The notes below the pieces were generated by a model. That model was not told the DNA's origin. It ran no database searches and was given only the letters and a program-made list of their open reading frames with translations. From an uncultured virus (IMG/VR IMGVR_UViG_3300037137_003071) (Duplodnaviria > Heunggongvirae > Uroviricota > Caudoviricetes), in IMG/VR virus record IMGVR_UViG_3300037137_003071: a DNA stretch of 64,000 bases; one strand, 5' to 3'. Of this stretch, positions 46,012 to 60,526 are shown piece after piece; the first letter of the stretch is position 1, and every line of letters starts with the position of its first letter. Made by a program: the position numbers and the translations under genes.

Positions 46012-46552
46012 GACGAGTATAGTTTCGTCGATCGTGGGCGCGACGGTGGTGCGGGGTGATCACCTCGCCATCCAGCAGGTCATTGACTTCGCCGCGCGGC
46101 CACGCTAGCCTTCTCTTCGTAGAGAACCTCATGTCGATCGCATCCGCATCCACGAGAGTCACAAGGCGCCAAGTCGGCGTCATGGGACATGCGTGCGCGC
46201 GCCGCGATTGGGCCGGCCAGGCGAACTTCGCCGGCCAGGGGACCGTCGTGGGTATCAAGCGCGAGCCGCAGCCCAAGACGTACGAAGGGAAGGCTCCAGA
46301 CTCGTAGACCAGGCTGAAACAGCCGAAACGATCTGGAGCCGCCCTGGGAAACAACCCCTCGGCGGCTTTCTCGTTTTCGGGCGTGCAGACCGGCGTGGCT
46401 CCGGGCGTGGTTGTAACCCACGCATGCTCTGCATCATCTCGGTTCGATTCCGAGCGCGCCCACGAAAGGAACGTGATGACGACGAAGACGAAGACGATGA
46501 CGATGACGAAGACGATGACGCGACTCAAACGCTCGACCACGCAACCCATCCT

Positions 46553-46935: not shown

Positions 46936-47064
46936 GCCGGAAAAGCCACGTGGTGTGGCACTTCTCTATCAAAGAAGAAAATTCCCAGCTTCGATACTCG
47001 TCGCGCTTGCGCGACATCCTTCGATGCTCACAAGCAAAGGTTGGTTCGACTCCAGCTTCCGGCG
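46936..47064 (+). ncRNA. tRNA-chimeric RNA E1 (Asp-like body, AUC anticodon, ~60-nt module in variable arm)
   Basis: GCCGGAA/TTCCGGC stem, D, anticodon and T arms, plus CC..ACTC..ATCC..CACAAGC module. Confidence 0.8.
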
Positions 47065-47152: not shown

Positions 47153-47287
47153 GGGCGAAGACGCTCCACGGTGGGGCACTTGACTATGGATCAAGCAAAC
47201 AACCGACAACAATACTCGCCGCGTTCACGCGTGGCATCCGTTGCGTGTCTACAAGCAAAGTTGGTTCGACTCCAACCTTCGCCCCCA
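47153..47287 (+). ncRNA. tRNA-chimeric RNA E2 (His-like body, AUG anticodon, module in variable arm, CCA end)
   Basis: G-1:C73, encoded CCA, CCGACA..ACTC..ATCC..TGTCTACAAGC module. Confidence 0.82.
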
Positions 47288-48963: not shown

Positions 48964-49036
48964 GTCTCTGTAGCTCAACAGATAGAGCGCTCGGCTACGG
49001 ACCGAGAGGCTGAGGGTGCAAGTCCTTCCAGAGACG
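48964..49036 (+). tRNA. tRNA-Arg(ACG)
   Basis: Cloverleaf, T-loop TGCAAGT. Confidence 0.85.
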
Positions 49037-50184: not shown

Positions 50185-50255
50185 GATGCCGTAGCACAAC
50201 GAAGTGCGGTCGCTTTATAAGCGAAGGGTTGGTGGTTCGAGTCCACCCGGCATCA
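50185..50255 (+). tRNA. tRNA-Ile(UAU)
   Basis: Cloverleaf, loop TT-TAT-AA, A73. Confidence 0.8.
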
Positions 50256-50262
50256 CGATCAT

Positions 50263-52519: not shown

Positions 52520-52563
52520 CTTCATCATCATCATCGTCATCATCATCGTCGTCGACTACGCAC

Positions 52564-52713: not shown

Positions 52714-52893
52714 CTACGCGCGCTTCAGCTTCTTAGCCGCGTGCAGCGCGACGCTCAACATCCACGAGCTGAGGCCGAGACCCGTGCTCTTCGCGGTCGC
52801 GGCCAGCACGCGCTTCTGCGCTTCCGTGACGCGGATGAGGATCCCTTTGTCCTTGCGTCCAGTCTTGCGTTGCGTTGTTTTTTTCGCTGCCAT
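52714..52893 (-). CDS. Ribbon-helix-helix regulator (59 aa, absent from the ORF track)
   Basis: MAAKK...KDKGILIRVTEAQKRVLAATAKSTGLGLSSWML; divergent from the TROVE gene. Confidence 0.7.
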   Translation of the reverse strand: MAAKKTTQRKTGRKDKGILIRVTEAQKRVLAATAKSTGLGLSSWMLSVALHAAKKLKRA

Positions 52894-53026
52894 GTCGTGA
52901 TAGCGCTTGTATAGCGTCTCGCGAACGGCGCTGTCAATCGAGCACGGTGTTGGAGGCGATCACGGGATTGACTCCGCTTGCGAATGGCTATACAAACGCT
53001 AGCGTTGAATGGCAGGAGGATTCGCG

Positions 53027-54928
53027 ATGACGACAGCAGCAGCAGAGAAGTTGGGGCCGGCGGAGAAGATCCTCCAGACGCTCCTGAACCACACGGACCA
53101 CATGGTTCACAACCGGCCCGGCATGGTGACGCCGGATGCTCGGCACACGATCGGCGTGCGCTGGGTGCCCGTCACGCACAAGGAGGAGAACGGCCAGAAG
53201 GTCGTCTACGAGCTGACGAAGGCCGGTAAGAAGACGAACAAGATCCGCAGGGGCGTGATGCGCGCCGACAACAAGATCGAGGAGAACGGCAAGGTCGTCG
53301 GAGAGTACCGTGCGCCCGGCATCTACCCCGAGGTCGCCGCGTGGATGTATCGCCAGGTCGCCGAGGTCTGGAAGATGGACAACGAGTTCGCGGCTCGTTG
53401 GGCTTCGCACGCGTTCGGTCAGGAGCACCGCGATCTAAAGGTCGTGCTCGCGGCGTTCATGCTCGTACAAACCCGCAAGGGTGATCCCGTGCTCGACGGT
53501 GGCAAGGTCGCGTTCTACGACGACGACTTCCGCGACATCGGCGAGGCGATGATGCTCATCCATCGTCGAGACGGCAAGGATCTGAACCCGAAGCTCCTGC
53601 TTCGCGTTCACGACCTCTTGAAGATGCCTGGCGTTGCGGCCATCAACCGCGAGCTGGGCTTCGGCAACTCCGCCCGGCGTCCGTTCCTTGGGCGCTGGTC
53701 GAAGGCGGTCGAGAAGTGGCTCCAGTTCCGCGAGGAGAACCCCAAGATGCTCGACGGTCTCATCAAGGCTGGCTTCAAGAGCACCGTGAAGGATCTCGCG
53801 CGGGCGGTCGGCTACAAGCCCGAGACCCCGAAGTTCTTCGAGGCTCTTGGCTGGGCTCAGGACCAGGCCAAGGACGGTCGGCGCTCGATGCTCATCGGCG
53901 TCGAGATGGCCAAGGGCGAGACCTGGGACGAGCTGACCGAGGCACAGGTCTGCGAGAAGATCGTCGCCGAGAAGCCGGACTGGAAGCGCATCGTCGGTCT
54001 TCTGCCGAAGAAGCTCGGTGTCACGCGCGCCATCATGAGTGCTGCCGTCGAGTCAGGCTCTTTGTCCAACAAGGATCTCATCATCCTCACGCCCACGCTC
54101 GAGGAGCTGGGACTCCTGGAGGTCAAGGAGGTCAAGGCGAAGTGGGATCGGGCTTTGAAGAAGGCCGAGGACGACATGCGTGCGGCGAACATCGCTCGCA
54201 ACGTGAAGTCCAAGGACGTCCAGGAGCAGCTCGTCGCTGCGGCTGACACCGCTCTCCAGAAGGCCATCGAGCAGGTGACGAAGAATCTTCGGATCTACGT
54301 CATCATCGACATCTCGGGCTCGATGGGAAACTCGATCGTGAAGGCGAAGCAGCTCCTGGCGAAGTTTCTCCAGGGCTTCCCGCCGGACCGTACGCACGTC
54401 GCCGTGTTCAACACGGCGGGGCGCGTGGTCGAGATCAAGCACGCGTCGGCCGCTGGCGTCGAGAACGCCTTCAAGGGCATCTCGGCGGACGGTGGAACGG
54501 CTCACGGTGCGGGCGTGCTCGCGCTGGAGAAGTTCAAGCCGAAGGACGACGAGGACTCGCTGTTCATCTTCATCGGTGACGGCGGTGAGAAGAAGACGTT
54601 CGACGCGTACGTGACCCAGTCGGGTCTGCGTCCGATGGCGTTCGGATTCCTCAAGCTGCCGGGCGAGAACTTCGGCTGCATCGAGACCACCGCGGCGGCT
54701 CTGGGCATCCCGTGCTTCCCGATCCTGGAGAACACGTTCGAGGACGTCTACGCGATTCCGCGGACCATCCGCGCCCTCGTGGCGGCGACCCCGGTCGGTG
54801 TGGTTGCACGGGTGGCAGCAACGCCGCGCGTGACTCTCGTCGACACGATCCTCAAGACCGATCTGCTCAAGAAGCCTGCTTGGGCATTCTCGGCCCGAGC
54901 TTCCGCTCCGGCGGCTGCAACGGCGTAA
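53027..54928 (+). CDS. Ro60/Rsr-like TROVE-vWA protein
   Basis: AGGAGGA RBS; helical region with AVEKWL...KDLARAVGYKP; vWA MIDAS DISGSM, GGT, IGDG. Confidence 0.75.
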   Translation: MTTAAAEKLGPAEKILQTLLNHTDHMVHNRPGMVTPDARHTIGVRWVPVTHKEENGQKVVYELTKAGKKTNKIRRGVMRADNKIEENGKVVGEYRAPGIYPEVAAWMYRQVAEVWKMDNEFAARWASHAFGQEHRDLKVVLAAFMLVQTRKGDPVLDGGKVAFYDDDFRDIGEAMMLIHRRDGKDLNPKLLLRVHDLLKMPGVAAINRELGFGNSARRPFLGRWSKAVEKWLQFREENPKMLDGLIKAGFKSTVKDLARAVGYKPETPKFFEALGWAQDQAKDGRRSMLIGVEMAKGETWDELTEAQVCEKIVAEKPDWKRIVGLLPKKLGVTRAIMSAAVESGSLSNKDLIILTPTLEELGLLEVKEVKAKWDRALKKAEDDMRAANIARNVKSKDVQEQLVAAADTALQKAIEQVTKNLRIYVIIDISGSMGNSIVKAKQLLAKFLQGFPPDRTHVAVFNTAGRVVEIKHASAAGVENAFKGISADGGTAHGAGVLALEKFKPKDDEDSLFIFIGDGGEKKTFDAYVTQSGLRPMAFGFLKLPGENFGCIETTAAALGIPCFPILENTFEDVYAIPRTIRALVAATPVGVVARVAATPRVTLVDTILKTDLLKKPAWAFSARASAPAAATA

Positions 54929-55025: not shown

Positions 55026-55958
55026 GTGGGCTGGCGCGATCTACTTCAGACGGGCGACGAGAAGGTGACCCTTCCGTGGCTCGGCGGCGGGACGCTGTAC
55101 TCCGCCGCGCAGCGCTGGTCCATCGAGGGTCGCCACCCGAAGGAGTACGGGTGGTTCACGTTCAAGATCGTCAACCGGGGAGCTCGCCTTGCGGGCCCGG
55201 CTGACGCTCAACCGGAGCTACTCCAGCACTCCGTGCGCGGCTACCTGGTCGGGGATCGCATCGTCGCAGACGACGTTCGTGTCGATCCAGATCCGAAGCG
55301 CATTGTGGAGTTCTCCGAGAAGGTGTTCTTGCTCGACGACGGCATCGACCGCTTCGCACGCGTGCGCGCGGGGCGGATCAACAAGGAAGGTCCCCTGGTC
55401 TACCAGGGGCTGGAGATGCCGCTCGGGCAGGAGGACCAGGTACTCGAAGCGTTCCTCGATCAGAAGACGTCGGTGGTCAACCTCAAGGACGTAGCTCCTG
55501 CGCTCGACGCCGCCTTCCGCATGGAGAGCTGGCAGCGCGCGGAGGCCGAGCGCCGACGTGTCGAGCTGGAGCGCATCCGTCGGGAAGAGGAGGAGAAGCG
55601 TCAGAAGGAGGAGCGTCGCAAGGAGCTGGTGAAGAAGCTCGGTGACGGTGAAGGCCGGCGCGAGATGGCGCTCCACGACTTCGACGCCGCCGCGCGCGCA
55701 GCGCTCGCGGTCGGCGGCGCGGTGTTCCTCGATGCGAAGAAGCTGCGGCACAACGAGTGGGCGGTGAAGTACCGGCTCGATCGCCAGCGCTTCGAGTGCG
55801 TCTGCAACGAGCACCTCAGCATCATCGACGCCGGCATCTGTCTCATCGACCACGACACCAACGAGAAGGGGGACACCTTCTTCACTCTCGAATCACTCCC
55901 AGCCGTCGTGCAGCAAGCGCAACGCGAACGACGGCTGGTCATCTTCCGCCACGTGTGA
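55026..55958 (+). CDS. Hypothetical protein with coiled coil and candidate E2-like C-terminal domain
   Basis: AGGAGG RBS; IIDAGICL...FTLESL. Confidence 0.7.
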   Translation: MGWRDLLQTGDEKVTLPWLGGGTLYSAAQRWSIEGRHPKEYGWFTFKIVNRGARLAGPADAQPELLQHSVRGYLVGDRIVADDVRVDPDPKRIVEFSEKVFLLDDGIDRFARVRAGRINKEGPLVYQGLEMPLGQEDQVLEAFLDQKTSVVNLKDVAPALDAAFRMESWQRAEAERRRVELERIRREEEEKRQKEERRKELVKKLGDGEGRREMALHDFDAAARAALAVGGAVFLDAKKLRHNEWAVKYRLDRQRFECVCNEHLSIIDAGICLIDHDTNEKGDTFFTLESLPAVVQQAQRERRLVIFRHV

Positions 55959-57126: not shown

Positions 57127-57522
57127 ATGATCGAAGCCGGAGTTGTTGTCGACAAGAGCGGGAACTCGATGTTCTGGCATCTTCCCGAGGGGCGCTCGGC
57201 GGGGAGCCTTCCCGACAGCCGGACCTTGTGGCAGGTTCTCTGGGACGCGTTCAAGGATGACACGCTGCTCGGGTTCGCACACAGTCACCCGGGCTCCGGC
57301 GTTCCCGGTCCCTCGTACTCGGACGTCACTACGTTCGCGGCCGTCGAAGCCGCGCTCGGCAAGCGGCTCGACTGGTGGATCACCAGCTCGGACCACGTGG
57401 TCCTGATCCGCTGGAGCGGACCCGACAAGATTTCATACCGCGCCACGATCGTTACGGAGGCACCGTCGTGGGTTGCGGAACTGCGACGCCTCTCTCAGCA
57501 CGAACAAGGACAAGGACAATGA
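57127..57522 (+). CDS. JAB/MPN+ metallopeptidase
   Basis: N-terminal E plus HSHP-x6-PS-x2-D JAMM motif. Confidence 0.85.
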   Translation: MIEAGVVVDKSGNSMFWHLPEGRSAGSLPDSRTLWQVLWDAFKDDTLLGFAHSHPGSGVPGPSYSDVTTFAAVEAALGKRLDWWITSSDHVVLIRWSGPDKISYRATIVTEAPSWVAELRRLSQHEQGQGQ

Positions 57523-57860
57523 ACGACATCAAGGACACCGAGGCGCGCGTCAACATCACGTACGGCGGCAAGAACGGCGATCTGCCGGACCCTGTCATGT
57601 TCCAGTCGACCGATGGCGACATCAAGATGTGGGTCACCGAGGCCGTCCGCACCGGCGGCGTTCCGGGGCTCGATGCGACGCCGAACGCCGACTTCGCGGA
57701 CTTCGTCGTCGATCGCTTCGCGGCGAGCGAAGTGCGCCCGTACCATTTGATCGCGATCCGACCGAAGACGCCGTTCGGGTTCGCTTCGTGCAATCACTGC
57801 AAGCAGTGCCTCGCGAAGATCGTCGGGCTGTCGTGCTGCGGGTGCGGAAGCAAGAAGTAG
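57519..57860 (+). CDS. Candidate ubiquitin-like (beta-grasp) protein with Cys-rich C-terminal extension
   Basis: 87-aa beta-beta-alpha-beta-beta pattern ending RPKTPFG, between JAB and E1. Confidence 0.6.
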   Translation: MNDIKDTEARVNITYGGKNGDLPDPVMFQSTDGDIKMWVTEAVRTGGVPGLDATPNADFADFVVDRFAASEVRPYHLIAIRPKTPFGFASCNHCKQCLAKIVGLSCCGCGSKK

Positions 57861-57861
57861 C

Positions 57862-58284
57862 GTGCGACGGATCGCGTTCGACATCGGGGGCGTGCTCTCG
57901 AAGTACCCGGAGAAGTTCCGGCCCTTCATCGTGAAGCTTCTCCACGGCGGCATCGAGGTGTTCGTCATCACCGACATGCACGACGTGGAGAAGATCTACG
58001 AGATGCTGGTCATGAACGACTTCGGGATGATTCCGAAGTCGAACGTCTACTCTGCTGACTACAAGGAGCATGGCGACGGCTGCAAGGCCGAGCTGCTGCG
58101 CGAGCTGGAGATCGATCTGTTCTTTGATGATCACCTACCGTACATGATGCTCCCCGGCGACACGATCCAGGCGCTCGTGATGCCGACCGCCTTCAAGCCG
58201 TACTGGTCCCCCGCGTGGAAAGTTCCTGAGGGCGGCGACGCGGAATTCGGACGGCGGTTCTACAAGAAAGGATGGTTGCTATGA
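57862..58284 (+). CDS. Capless HAD-family phosphatase-like protein
   Basis: IAFDIGGVL, VIT, K, FFDD. Confidence 0.7.
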   Translation: MRRIAFDIGGVLSKYPEKFRPFIVKLLHGGIEVFVITDMHDVEKIYEMLVMNDFGMIPKSNVYSADYKEHGDGCKAELLRELEIDLFFDDHLPYMMLPGDTIQALVMPTAFKPYWSPAWKVPEGGDAEFGRRFYKKGWLL

Positions 58285-58850
58285 TCCTCATCGTCGGCGT
58301 TGGAGCGCTGGGCAGTCACCTGGTCCAGTTCATCCGCAACGAGAAGGTGGACATCAAGGTCATCGACTTCGATCGCGTCGAACAAAAAAATGTGATGTCC
58401 CAGTTCCACGGCAAGCCGGGCGTTGGCAAGAACAAGGTCGACGCGTTGAAGCAGACGATGGACTTCCTCTTCAAGAGGAACCTCCAGATCGTCAGCCACA
58501 AGCTCGTCGAGAACAACGTCGACGTTCTCATGAAGGGCGCGACACTCGTCATCGACTGCCTCGACAACGGCGCAGCTCGGAAGCTCGTGCAGGACTACGT
58601 GCGCAAGCACAACCTGCCGTGTCTCCATGGCGCGCTCGCGCCGGGCGGCGAGTTTGGCCGCGCGATCTGGGACGAGCTATTCGTGATCGACAGCGAGATC
58701 GGCGCGGGCTCGGCAACGTGCGAGGACGGCGAGTTCTTGCCGTTCATCGCGCTCACGGCGGCGTACCTGGCGCGATCGGTTCAGCTCTTCTTGAAGGACG
58801 GAAAGAAGATCGGCTTCTCGATCTCGCCTGTTGGCGTCGTTGCCATCTGA
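58281..58850 (+). CDS. Minimal E1/ThiF-family adenylyltransferase
   Basis: IVGVGALGS, IDFDRVE.KN, K, IDCLDN..AR, ATCE cysteine. Confidence 0.9.
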   Translation: MILIVGVGALGSHLVQFIRNEKVDIKVIDFDRVEQKNVMSQFHGKPGVGKNKVDALKQTMDFLFKRNLQIVSHKLVENNVDVLMKGATLVIDCLDNGAARKLVQDYVRKHNLPCLHGALAPGGEFGRAIWDELFVIDSEIGAGSATCEDGEFLPFIALTAAYLARSVQLFLKDGKKIGFSISPVGVVAI

Positions 58851-59043
58851 ACCGCTAGTGGCGGATCTTGGCACCGAAGACAATGTTGTAGCGGCCTGTC
58901 TACGCTGCAATCTCCTGCGTGGCGACATGCCCTATGAAGCGTGGCAGGTGCTGATACCAGCTGTGCGCGAAGTCGCGAAGGCCGGTTTGTTTGGAAGCTG
59001 GCGATCTTCACCGATCAACCGAAGAAGTACGCCAGCCGCGTAG
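58851..59043 (+). pseudogene. HNH endonuclease C-terminal remnant
   Basis: NVVAACLRCNLLRGD.PY..W resembles 56543..57124; no N-terminal half. Confidence 0.55.
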
Positions 59044-59082
59044 AGCACGATCTCGCTGGTCGGCACAATTACCAGCTAGTGT

Positions 59083-59111
59083 TTGACAACGGCCCCAGTA
59101 TCAACTAGGCT
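59083..59111 (+). promoter_or_regulatory. Sigma70-type promoter for the RNA cluster
   Basis: TTGACA-17 bp-TAGGCT, about 8 nt upstream of E3. Confidence 0.75.
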
Positions 59112-59118
59112 TTCACCC

Positions 59119-59262
59119 ACTCGGTCACCAACCGAAAGTCCTCACAAGCCCGGGTTCGACTCCCGACAGATTCCTGAAAAGGGATCTGATAGCCAAACGG
59201 TAAGGCACCTGTCTTGTAAACAGGCTGAAAAGCATCCAGGACTATCAACTCGGTGACCAAGT
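59119..59262 (+). ncRNA. Circularly permuted tRNA-chimeric RNA E3 (YrlA-like topology, UGU anticodon arm retained)
   Basis: Order: module 3' strand, T arm, loop-closed acceptor stem, D arm, anticodon arm, module 5' strand. Confidence 0.8.
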
Positions 59263-59266
59263 ATTT

Positions 59267-59394
59267 GGCGAACAAGGGACGTGGTGTCCCACTTTCCTCA
59301 TAAGAAAGCATCATCCGACAGGCTTGACTCGAACCCGCGAGGGTTCACTCCGATTCTGTCTACAAGCCGCGTGGTTCGACTCCACGGTTCGCCA
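59267..59394 (+). ncRNA. tRNA-chimeric RNA E4 (CAU anticodon, module in variable arm)
   Basis: GGCGAAC/GTTCGCC stem; CCGACAG..ACTC..CTGTCTACAAGC module. Confidence 0.82.
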
Positions 59395-59401
59395 CTGAGA
59401 C

Positions 59402-59517
59402 GCAGCCAATCTAGAGTGCTCACACGCATAGCTCAACGGTAGAGCATCGGCCTACGAAGCCGAAGGTTGGGACTTCAAAAATCCCTGCATTCAACCAAGC
59501 ACTCTTCACTCGGCTGC
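59402..59517 (+). ncRNA. tRNA-chimeric RNA E5 (Arg-ACG body with module replacing the acceptor stem)
   Basis: GCAGCC/GGCTGC and AGAGTGCT/AGCACTCT stems enclose D, anticodon and T-like arms. Confidence 0.75.
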
Positions 59518-59581
59518 CCTCTAATTTTTACTCCGTGCCGGTCCTGAGCTGGCGCGTAGCTCAGCTGATACGCCGCGAGCC

Positions 59582-59806
59582 TCACATCCTGAACTTCGCT
59601 GGCACGTTCGCTTCGACCCAGTCGGCAACCGCCGCCTGTGCCGCGCGTTGGCGCGCGTGATGCGCTCCTGGGTCGAGGTCGCCGGTCTTGGCCTGCGGGT
59701 ACTTCTTCGCGACGACCCGCCAGAAGGCTTCCAGTGCGTCCTCGGTCACGGAGATCACGAGGGACGCGGCGATGTCACGATCGAGCTGTGCGGGCGTCTT
59801 GGCCAT
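59582..59806 (-). CDS. Small hypothetical protein
   Basis: AGGAGG RBS; MAKTPAQLDRDIA motif. Confidence 0.6.
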   Translation of the reverse strand: MAKTPAQLDRDIAASLVISVTEDALEAFWRVVAKKYPQAKTGDLDPGAHHARQRAAQAAVADWVEANVPAKFRM

Positions 59807-59827
59807 GCCCTCCTACCGCACCCCTCG

Positions 59828-60526
59828 TCACGTCGTTACTTTGGGCGCCGTCGAGAGCAGGTACGACGGGTAGCCACGCTTCTTGTAGTACGTGTCGAAG
59901 GCGCGATCCCGCTCTTCCTCGGTCATGCCTGACCGCAGGCCAACGTCGCTGGCAAGCTTGCGCGTCTCGGCCAAGCGGCGCTCGCCCGTCTTGATCGTCG
60001 GACGTACAAGCATGAGGTAGCCGACTCCCAGGACGGCAGTCGCGCCGATCGCGATCTTCCACCATGGCGTGCCGACGGATCGATCCTGCGCTGCGTCCAC
60101 GGTCCCGTGGATCACCACGCTCGGCGCCGCCGTCTCGAGCCCCCACGAGGCTCCCGCACTCATCTTGAGGTCGTTGTAGCGGGACGCCCAGCTCATCAGC
60201 ACGAGAGCGGGGCCGCGATCGGCGCTACTGATCTTTCCCGCGAGCAACTGTGCGAGCACCTGGTCGCGCGCGACGTTCCAGGCCCTGACGAAGGGCACCC
60301 AGTACGTGAGCACGAAGTGCGACTGATCGAGACCTTCGCCCGGTTTCTGGCCAGCCGCGCGCCAGTCGGTCTGGTACTTCGTCGCGTAGTCGTGATCCGC
60401 CTGCTGGATCGCCGCATCGAGCTCGTTGACGCGCTCGCGGAACACGTAGGCATAGCTGCGGTAGAAACCTTCCGCTTGAGGGAGCTTGCTGACGCCGTTG
60501 CTGCCGATGTATTCGCCGCGACCCAT
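59828..60526 (-). CDS. Membrane-anchored helical protein, possibly a distant member of the Trp-rich family
   Basis: W.PF..AW...W..RY pattern, WW plus TM helix. Confidence 0.6.
   Translation of the reverse strand: MGRGEYIGSNGVSKLPQAEGFYRSYAYVFRERVNELDAAIQQADHDYATKYQTDWRAAGQKPGEGLDQSHFVLTYWVPFVRAWNVARDQVLAQLLAGKISSADRGPALVLMSWASRYNDLKMSAGASWGLETAAPSVVIHGTVDAAQDRSVGTPWWKIAIGATAVLGVGYLMLVRPTIKTGERRLAETRKLASDVGLRSGMTEEERDRAFDTYYKKRGYPSYLLSTAPKVTT

Follow-up and report, generated by a model that had tools for sequence, protein, structure and literature searches.

The RNA encoded at positions 59402 to 59517 of the window (the whole stretch of DNA analysed, 64,000 nt) is a conserved structured RNA that is not chargeable as it stands. 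It carries a tRNA body, held by its acceptor end, on a helix-loop-helix module. Together with its homologues it forms what is, on well-supported grounds, a new family of Y-like tRNA mimics that has the topology of Yrn1 and lies outside both YrlA and Yrn1. Our analysis suggests, with a probability of a little under 0.6, that this RNA acts as a Y-like tether linking a divergent Ro60 to a tRNA-recognising protein. An earlier note on this DNA had proposed a non-chargeable RNA mounted through its acceptor end, and the conservation of the RNA, its 3-bp acceptor and the lack of a CCA speak for that proposal.

The window contains a phage lysozyme gene, HNH genes and a tRNA array (34 ARAGORN calls), and for this reason it probably stems from a large phage. 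Genes for a 639-aa vWA protein, a 310-aa protein, AlkB, HNH, a JAB-like protein, a small protein and a ThiF/E1 protein lie upstream of the RNA on the same strand (Table 1). Triplet-repeat runs of the GAY/GAA and CAT/CGT types, directly upstream of tRNA genes at 46474-46520 and 52520-52560, might be short leader ORFs.

Table 1. Coordinates of the acceptor-mounted RNA, its parts, its sibling RNAs and the genes of the neighbouring cassette.
Feature	Positions	Strand	Content or basis
Acceptor-mounted tRNA-mimic Y-like RNA	59402..59517	+	fold z -3.98; 101 distinct family members
Module 5' strand	59402..59427	+	GCAGCC terminal helix, C-A loop opening, inner helix AGAGTGCT, invariant ACA(C/A)GC
tRNA body	59426..59488	+	3-bp acceptor stub, D arm, anticodon arm, variable loop, T arm
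Module 3' strand	59489..59517	+	A/C-rich linker, inner helix AGCACTCT, CUC(G) 59509-59512, terminal helix GGCTGC
Sibling RNA, circularly permuted tRNA mimic	59123..59258	+	motif scans; fold z -4.85
Sibling RNA, unpermuted, 7-bp acceptor, anticodon CAT, module hairpin in variable arm	59267..59394	+	fold and motif scans
Sibling RNA in tRNA array, variable-arm module, anticodon ATC	46936..47064	+	motif scans
Sibling RNA in tRNA array, variable-arm module, anticodon ATG	47153..47285	+	motif scans
Divergent Ro60-like protein, 639 aa, presumed partner	53009..54928	+	N-terminal beta domain, TROVE-like helical domain, vWA
310-aa protein, cysteines near C-terminus	55026..55958	+	tblastn match in 73/73 RNA-bearing loci
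JAB-like protein	57127..57522	+	HSH..S..D motif in translation; 65/73 loci
Small protein (114 aa) between JAB-like and E1 genes	57516..57860	+	71/73 loci
ThiF/E1-family adenylyltransferase, upstream of three-RNA cluster	58281..58850	+	Pfam ThiF E 2.8e-19; 70/73 loci

Fold and family of the acceptor-mounted RNA

The 116-nt plus-strand RNA folds at -39.1 kcal/mol (z -3.98), and none of 200 shuffled sequences folds as well. Its D arm (GCTC 59431-59434 with GAGC 59442-59445), anticodon arm (TCGGC 59447-59451, loop CTACGAA 59452-59458, GCCGA 59459-59463, the ACG itself at 59454-59456), 3-bp acceptor stub (GCA 59426-59428 with TGC 59486-59488) and the module stems all lie where the earlier note had placed them. 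The module contributes an inner helix of 8 bp (59413-59420 with 59498-59505) and a terminal helix of 6 bp (59402-59407 with 59512-59517). The T arm has 4 bp (GGGA 59469-59472 with TCCC 59482-59485) and a 9-nt loop. This loop had been described as enlarged and is so, because its closing pair G53-C61 is replaced by C.A in the Rfam tRNA alignment; the U54-U55-C56-A57-A58 core is intact. The acceptor remnant is likewise present, with the refinement that its GC/GC part belongs to the conserved module, in which a GC lies opposite ACA(C/A)GC in 76 of 101 homologues.

Both ARAGORN and Rfam (49.4 bits) call positions 59422-59493 a tRNA-Arg(ACG). The D arm, the anticodon arm, U33 and the elbow bases are indeed those of such a tRNA, with the G53-C61 pair broken. 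A 7-bp acceptor with a free 3' NCCA is lacking: the Rfam alignment shows mismatches at three of the seven acceptor pairs, ATTC stands in the place of CCA, and since only 3 bp form and both ends are buried inside module helices, the RNA cannot be charged as it stands.

A covariance model built from 14 acceptor-mounted sequences was run against 166 sources, namely the window and 165 loci around relatives of the 639-aa protein. It returned 122 full-length hits of at least 60 bits in 90 sources, 101 of them distinct; 14 of the 122 match by construction, being the model's own input. Model R1 scores the RNA of the window at 115 bits, having been built partly from that same RNA. The acceptor-mounted form is present in 47 of 57 non-redundant, fully flanked loci and missing within 10 kb in the other 10; a partial hit in locus L108, excluded from the 122 hits and from the alignment, is counted as present in this tally. 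The 60-bit cut-off is not clean beyond the protein-selected loci, as tRNA-Thr(TGT) genes that follow ACACGC reach 56-65 bits. Eight loci (L167, L168, L170, L171, L172, L175, L216 and L239) hold ordinary tRNA-Thr(TGT) genes of this kind, with flanks pairing over about 7 bp; these look-alikes have neither the module loops nor a Ro60-like gene.

Base pairing in the family is maintained by paired substitutions. An unfitted MAFFT alignment of 14 sequences has two-sided changes at 18 of 23 pairs. The model alignment of 101 sequences, which leans towards the structure, shows covariation at 21 of 23, with 97% of cells paired as compared to 31-49% when the partners are slid. Compensatory changes occur in all eight terminal pairs of the module, and 64% of sequences have an inner helix of at least 6 bp; combining the 5' strand of one sequence with the 3' strand of another lowers this share to 15%. 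The module bases are nearly fixed (ACA and G 101/101, closing C 97/101, next A 89/101), as is the CUC of the 3' strand (101/101). An alternative 2-bp helix proposed by RNAalifold (columns 22-23 with 32-33) is an artefact of poorly aligned linkers; when the sequences are tested one by one, the inner helix and the acceptor stub come out ahead. These results bear on the possibility that the RNA is a tRNA-Arg pseudogene in decay whose flanking stems arose by chance, an outcome that the earlier note had itself named as fatal to its proposal. The automatic tools would agree with it, ARAGORN labelling 68 of 103 family hits as tRNAs, and the T-loop pair is broken in the clade, but covariation, the invariant non-tRNA motifs and the presence of the form in most loci refute the idea, which retains next to no probability.

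The tRNA body is conserved as well. Elbow bases are found at high frequency among the 101 sequences (C56 101, A14 98, U55 97, A58 95, G19 93), with A14, G18, G19, U54, U55 and A58 each retained in 90-98, and position 15:48 covaries (A-U 35, U-A 21, G-C 15). The T-loop closing pair, damaged in the copy of the window, is intact in 88 homologues, and 96 have a 7-nt anticodon loop. The acceptor strand measures 2-10 nt, with a mode of 3 (27/101) and 2-3 nt in 31/101, and NCCA follows the acceptor in only 9/101; the short stub is thus a recurring design rather than damage. Some members come closer to a tRNA: an acceptor of at least 7 pairs with at most one mismatch occurs in 20 of 101, and in 6 of these NCCA comes next. 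They would suit a tRNA precursor that is kept on Ro60 until RNase P and 3' processing release a functional tRNA, and YrlA of M. smegmatis is reported to be cut by RNase P and to gain CCA (PMC4201824, accessible in part). Against such a precursor speak the three acceptor pairs of our RNA, which is the commonest length in the family, the many anticodons that are unusable for decoding, and the complete, separate tRNA-Arg(ACG) gene at 48964 in the array, so that we regard this reading as very improbable.

Two variants deserve mention. Six members (L134 4787-4915, L118 19092-19218, L115 8884-9025, L111 21711-21838, L220 9979-10107 and, on the minus strand, L300 9919-10045) combine a 2-3 bp acceptor with a small extra hairpin capped by a tetraloop; it lies in the 3' linker and occupies the place of the acceptor 3' end. 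In an ACG homologue, L082 21121-21247, the acceptor has 7 nt with 6 pairs and ACCA comes after it; this RNA may stand midway on the path from a tRNA-Arg to the acceptor-mounted family.

Anticodon and mountings

The anticodon is the most variable part of an otherwise conserved loop. Positions 34-36 carry 0.06-0.09 bits and positions 32, 33, 37 and 38 carry 1.0-1.2 bits (C32 in 78, U33 in 84, A37 in 84 and A38 in 78 of 101). Read from the model alignment, the 96 seven-nt loops hold 33 anticodons, led by ACG (10), TGA (9), GAT (9), TAT (8), TAA (6) and ATG (5). Among the five closest relatives, with 85-93% identity, two read ACG and one each GAT, CGT and TAT, these latter three at 85-89% identity. 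The array contains a tRNA-Ile(TAT) at 50185-50256, and TAT is also recurrent in the family. The acceptor-mounted family is not Arg-specific. The earlier note's decoy or modification substrate specific for arginine is therefore weakened by this diversity; what stands of it is that ACG is the commonest anticodon and that the loop of our RNA contains UACG, a motif edited by TadA (PMC13170351, in its accessible part). From its sequence, I34 editing of this one member is plausible, and as the purpose of the family it is ruled out.

A34 occurs in 27 of 96 family loops and, among the remaining tRNAs that ARAGORN calls in these loci, in 33 of 989 (Fisher p 9e-15, uncorrected for kinship), so that these RNAs do not follow decoding rules. 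The anticodons are not random draws either. Across sequence clusters they recur with a Simpson index of 0.035-0.039, against 0.021-0.022 expected from base frequencies (p about 0.001), and ACG is found in 7-8 clusters, which are not fully independent, against about 1.2 expected. Selection might explain this recurrence, or array tRNAs might have been recruited repeatedly. Paralogues carry different anticodons in all 24 multi-copy loci, which is near the chance expectation.

A motif scan of the window located the same module in five RNAs and in three mountings: as a variable-arm hairpin (46996, 47214, 59327), in permuted form (59123-59258) and on the acceptor. The permuted sibling has the order T arm, closed acceptor, D arm, anticodon arm, and its module opens at the variable-arm position. 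The two siblings in the tRNA array have A34 anticodons and a short, G+C-rich D arm, and are missed by ARAGORN and Rfam. A looser scan of the window and the 165 loci gave 75 acceptor, 99 variable-arm and 85 permuted hits (66, 85 and 70 distinct), all on the strand of the Ro60-like gene and none on the opposite strand; shuffled sequences gave 0, 0 and 2. All three mountings are held by 10 of the 57 loci, and a variable-arm or permuted form by 44.

The anticodon arm is retained in all three mountings of the window and, unlike it, YrlA is without the loop according to the accessible part of 10.1101/312249, which keeps a decoy role under consideration. The RNAs could form an anticodon panel that soaks up anticodon nucleases or other defence proteins reading the anticodon, with Ro60 stabilising the RNA or holding the cut halves for repair and with the anticodon switching with the host; an arginine-specific decoy would be a special case. 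The conserved loop frame, the excess recurrence of a few anticodons, ACG foremost, and the differing paralogues would all fit. A34 in two-codon boxes is avoided by bacterial tRNAs, however, and among the 33 anticodons there are many of this kind, which would mimic no host target. Moreover, the paralogue difference is near chance, the recurrence could stem from recruitment of, or conversion by, array tRNAs across clusters that are not fully independent, and the array already supplies a complete tRNA-Arg(ACG). We consider a decoy panel unlikely.

It is also conceivable that the tRNA fold is a stable cap, which keeps nucleases off the Ro60-binding module and gates the ring, with no effector bound to the tRNA body. 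Chen et al. raised this possibility for YrlA and Yrn1 (PMC4201824, accessible in part). The free anticodon, the variable acceptor length and the interchangeable mountings would be compatible with a cap, as would two module-only RNAs (L051 6760-6841 and L053 6268-6349), in which the handle is capped by a plain hairpin in a YrlB/Yrn2-like manner. Yet stability would not require the degree of conservation seen in the D stem sequence, at C56 and in the frame of the anticodon loop, and the co-occurrence of several forms per genome suggests distinct roles, which makes a mere cap a rather improbable explanation.

A divergent Ro60-like protein and its cassette

The presumed protein partner is encoded 4.5 kb upstream of the RNA on the same strand. 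Pfam recognises only a vWA domain in this 639-aa protein; neither it nor 13 distant homologues match Pfam TROVE, there is no sequence match in the PDB, and none of the sequence-based searches ties the protein to Ro60. The full AlphaFold model (pLDDT 79, pTM 0.48) has Ro60 structures as its top 10 Foldseek hits, led by those of Thermus phage phiLo, with low TM-scores of 0.22-0.31 and 12-15 A rmsd. When the helical domain is taken alone (pLDDT 91), three Ro60 representatives rank first among 48,161 chains (Z 13.8, 11.5 and 9.6, the next unrelated fold reaching 6.6). The best match, 1YVP, aligns 264 of 325 residues at Z 13.8 and rmsd 3.8. Foldseek E-values for this domain are weak (0.05-0.18), with Ro60 giving the highest TM-scores (0.39-0.43), and sequence identity to Ro60 is only 11-18%. 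By its predicted helical-domain fold, with a TROVE-type helical region followed by vWA, the protein is Ro60-like. About 100 residues at its N-terminus (53009-53305) form a beta-rich domain outside the Ro60 alignment. Transcribed divergently from the gene, at 52714-52893 on the minus strand, is a NikA/TacA-like small protein (Pfam E 3e-5), a candidate regulator.

A query of viral sequences with the single protein found no match, and an alignment query did find relatives. At least 1778 are known in total; their carriers include viral contigs of up to 619 kb, Virus Rctr197k, where the gene lies beside a tRNA array and ThiF, and 24 GTDB contigs, most of which belong to MAGs of Myxococcota or Deltaproteobacteria.

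The linkage between RNA and protein was also approached from the DNA side. A protein-blind scan with two patterns matched at least 239 viral stretches, of which 160 were examined. Among the matches listed, a true module RNA is present in nine of these 160 loci, and a Ro60-like protein is encoded on each of the nine contigs, inside the locus in seven and about 20 kb off in two. The remaining 151 loci have no such gene in the fetched DNA, again among the matches listed. Seven of the nine contigs were already in the protein-selected set, from which the scan pattern derives. Three borderline tRNA-Thr(TGT) loci (L197, L236 and L241, 57-61 bits), without a Ro60-like gene in the fetched DNA, were excluded. 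The Ro60-like partner that the earlier note had envisaged is thus backed by both fold and linkage. Linkage alone cannot name the binder, since out of 73 loci with the RNA, 73 also have the 310-aa gene, 65 the JAB-like gene, 71 the small gene and 70 the E1 gene.

The other cassette products are less easily classified. The 310-aa protein has no Pfam, PHROG, NCBIfam or usable ESM Atlas match, and 'E2-like' is a tentative label of our own. The product of 57127-57522, which we take to be a JAB protein from its HSH..S..D motif, has a weak match to PHROG 5556 (E 2.5e-4). The 114-aa protein, which has no family match and no usable ESM Atlas match, is presumed from its gene context to be ubiquitin-like.

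As to expression, a soil metatranscriptome contig (151 nt, depth 2) covers 59410-59493 with one difference and then continues into a related module end. It comes from a relative, may be DNA carry-over, and is at most a weak hint of expression. Two sequencing runs only had a word share of 0.05, and their contigs stem from relatives, one probably being DNA. We found no sigma-70 promoter and no intrinsic terminator in 58700-59900.

Relation to known Y RNAs and proposed role

The RNA shares with Y RNAs a long stem, interrupted by an internal loop, in which its 5' and 3' ends pair, and a same-strand gene near Ro60, the 4.5 kb being slightly beyond the 4 kb given in the accessible part of PMC4201824. 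Rfam Y RNA models have no hit in the window, at gathering thresholds or at E up to 5. Five related records score at best 37 bits with RF02553 (YrlA, cut-off 69) and at most 21 bits with RF01053 (Yrn1, cut-off 80). The Ro60-binding motif GNCGAAN0-1G is present in none of the 101 sequences within the first 30 nt, and CGAA in five.

Yrn1 of Deinococcus radiodurans (RF01053) partners Rsr and PNPase (RYPER). Like our RNA, it is encoded near Ro60 on the same strand and has a 5'/3' stem bearing a tRNA-like domain that is mounted by the acceptor, with a stem-loop between D and T at the anticodon position. As described in the part of PMC4201824 that is accessible, and which covers all these points, Yrn1 differs in that it lacks a clear D arm and any V arm, has a loop of 6 nt and carries a metazoan-like Ro60 helix, whereas the acceptor-mounted family has a complete D arm, mostly 7-nt loops, a V loop and other module motifs. 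YrlA (RF02553; Salmonella, mycobacteria, phages) is also a tRNA mimic with a conserved elbow and a 15:48 pair, several Y RNAs may share a locus adjoining Ro60, and its arm order is that of the permuted sibling at 59123. The YYAC of the module before the T arm may recall YrlA's YUAY. YrlA is, however, permuted, with a closed acceptor, no anticodon loop as far as the accessible part of 10.1101/312249 describes it, and the GNCGAA motif; our RNA is unpermuted, in the order D, anticodon, T, and retains the anticodon loop. The Ro60 of phiLo is likewise phage-encoded, with adjacent Y-like RNAs, Yrl1 and Yrl2 (PMC12135203, accessible in part; PDB 9KOP, 9L5Y). These carry CGAA and are described there as hairpins rather than with a tRNA body, and compared to the phiLo protein the 639-aa protein has the additional N-terminal beta domain, and its gene belongs to a cassette that includes E1. 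A literature search, the coverage of which leaves out most subscription papers, found no description of the acceptor-mounted family and nothing joining phage Ro60 or Y RNA with ubiquitin-like conjugation.

Together, our data suggest a model in which the RNA tethers the Ro60 ring to a host protein that recognises the tRNA shape, or lets that protein gate the ring. The module, with its terminal helix, C-A/CUCG loop, inner helix and ACA(C/A)GC, is very probably the binding site of the Ro60-like protein, replacing the GNCGAA helix; because that motif is absent, the ligand of the module could also be another, equally linked cassette protein. The tRNA body, with its L shape and its exposed elbow and anticodon arm, would probably bind the host protein, leaving the anticodon letters largely free. 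Known Y RNAs offer a precedent, as Yrn1 and YrlA tether Ro60 to PNPase and their conserved elbow has been proposed to bind a further factor (PMC4201824 and 10.1101/312249, each accessible in part). The acceptor, variable-arm and permuted mountings would give Ro60 three tRNA-shaped handles that expose different ends. Our best guess for the effector, a speculation, is a host tRNA-directed nuclease or exoribonuclease, because the element also carries the 34-gene tRNA array.

The tight linkage of the RNA with the E1 cassette makes it admissible to view the RNP as a substrate adaptor for ubiquitin-like tagging. The phage might use it for counter-defence, the Ro60 handle, attached at three tRNA sites and fitted with a switching anticodon, capturing host tRNA attackers or sensors for covalent tagging by the E1/E2-like/ubiquitin-like/JAB cassette. 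We hold this extension to be doubtful; if it is true, a ubiquitin-like system of prokaryotes would have an RNA as its substrate adaptor.

The reason for tRNA mimicry by bacterial Y RNAs and the identity of the mimic's binding partner are still treated as open questions in the accessible parts of the literature. The present family amounts to a natural experiment, with one handle, three tRNA arms and about 100 sequences per form, and the combination of a free anticodon with a fixed elbow indicates which surface to test. The module is a candidate for a new Ro60 recognition motif, in a Ro60 clade that Pfam misses. As ARAGORN takes so many of the family RNAs for tRNAs, both tRNA inventories and codon-usage arguments for these large phages and for Myxococcota-binned contigs may count such RNAs in.
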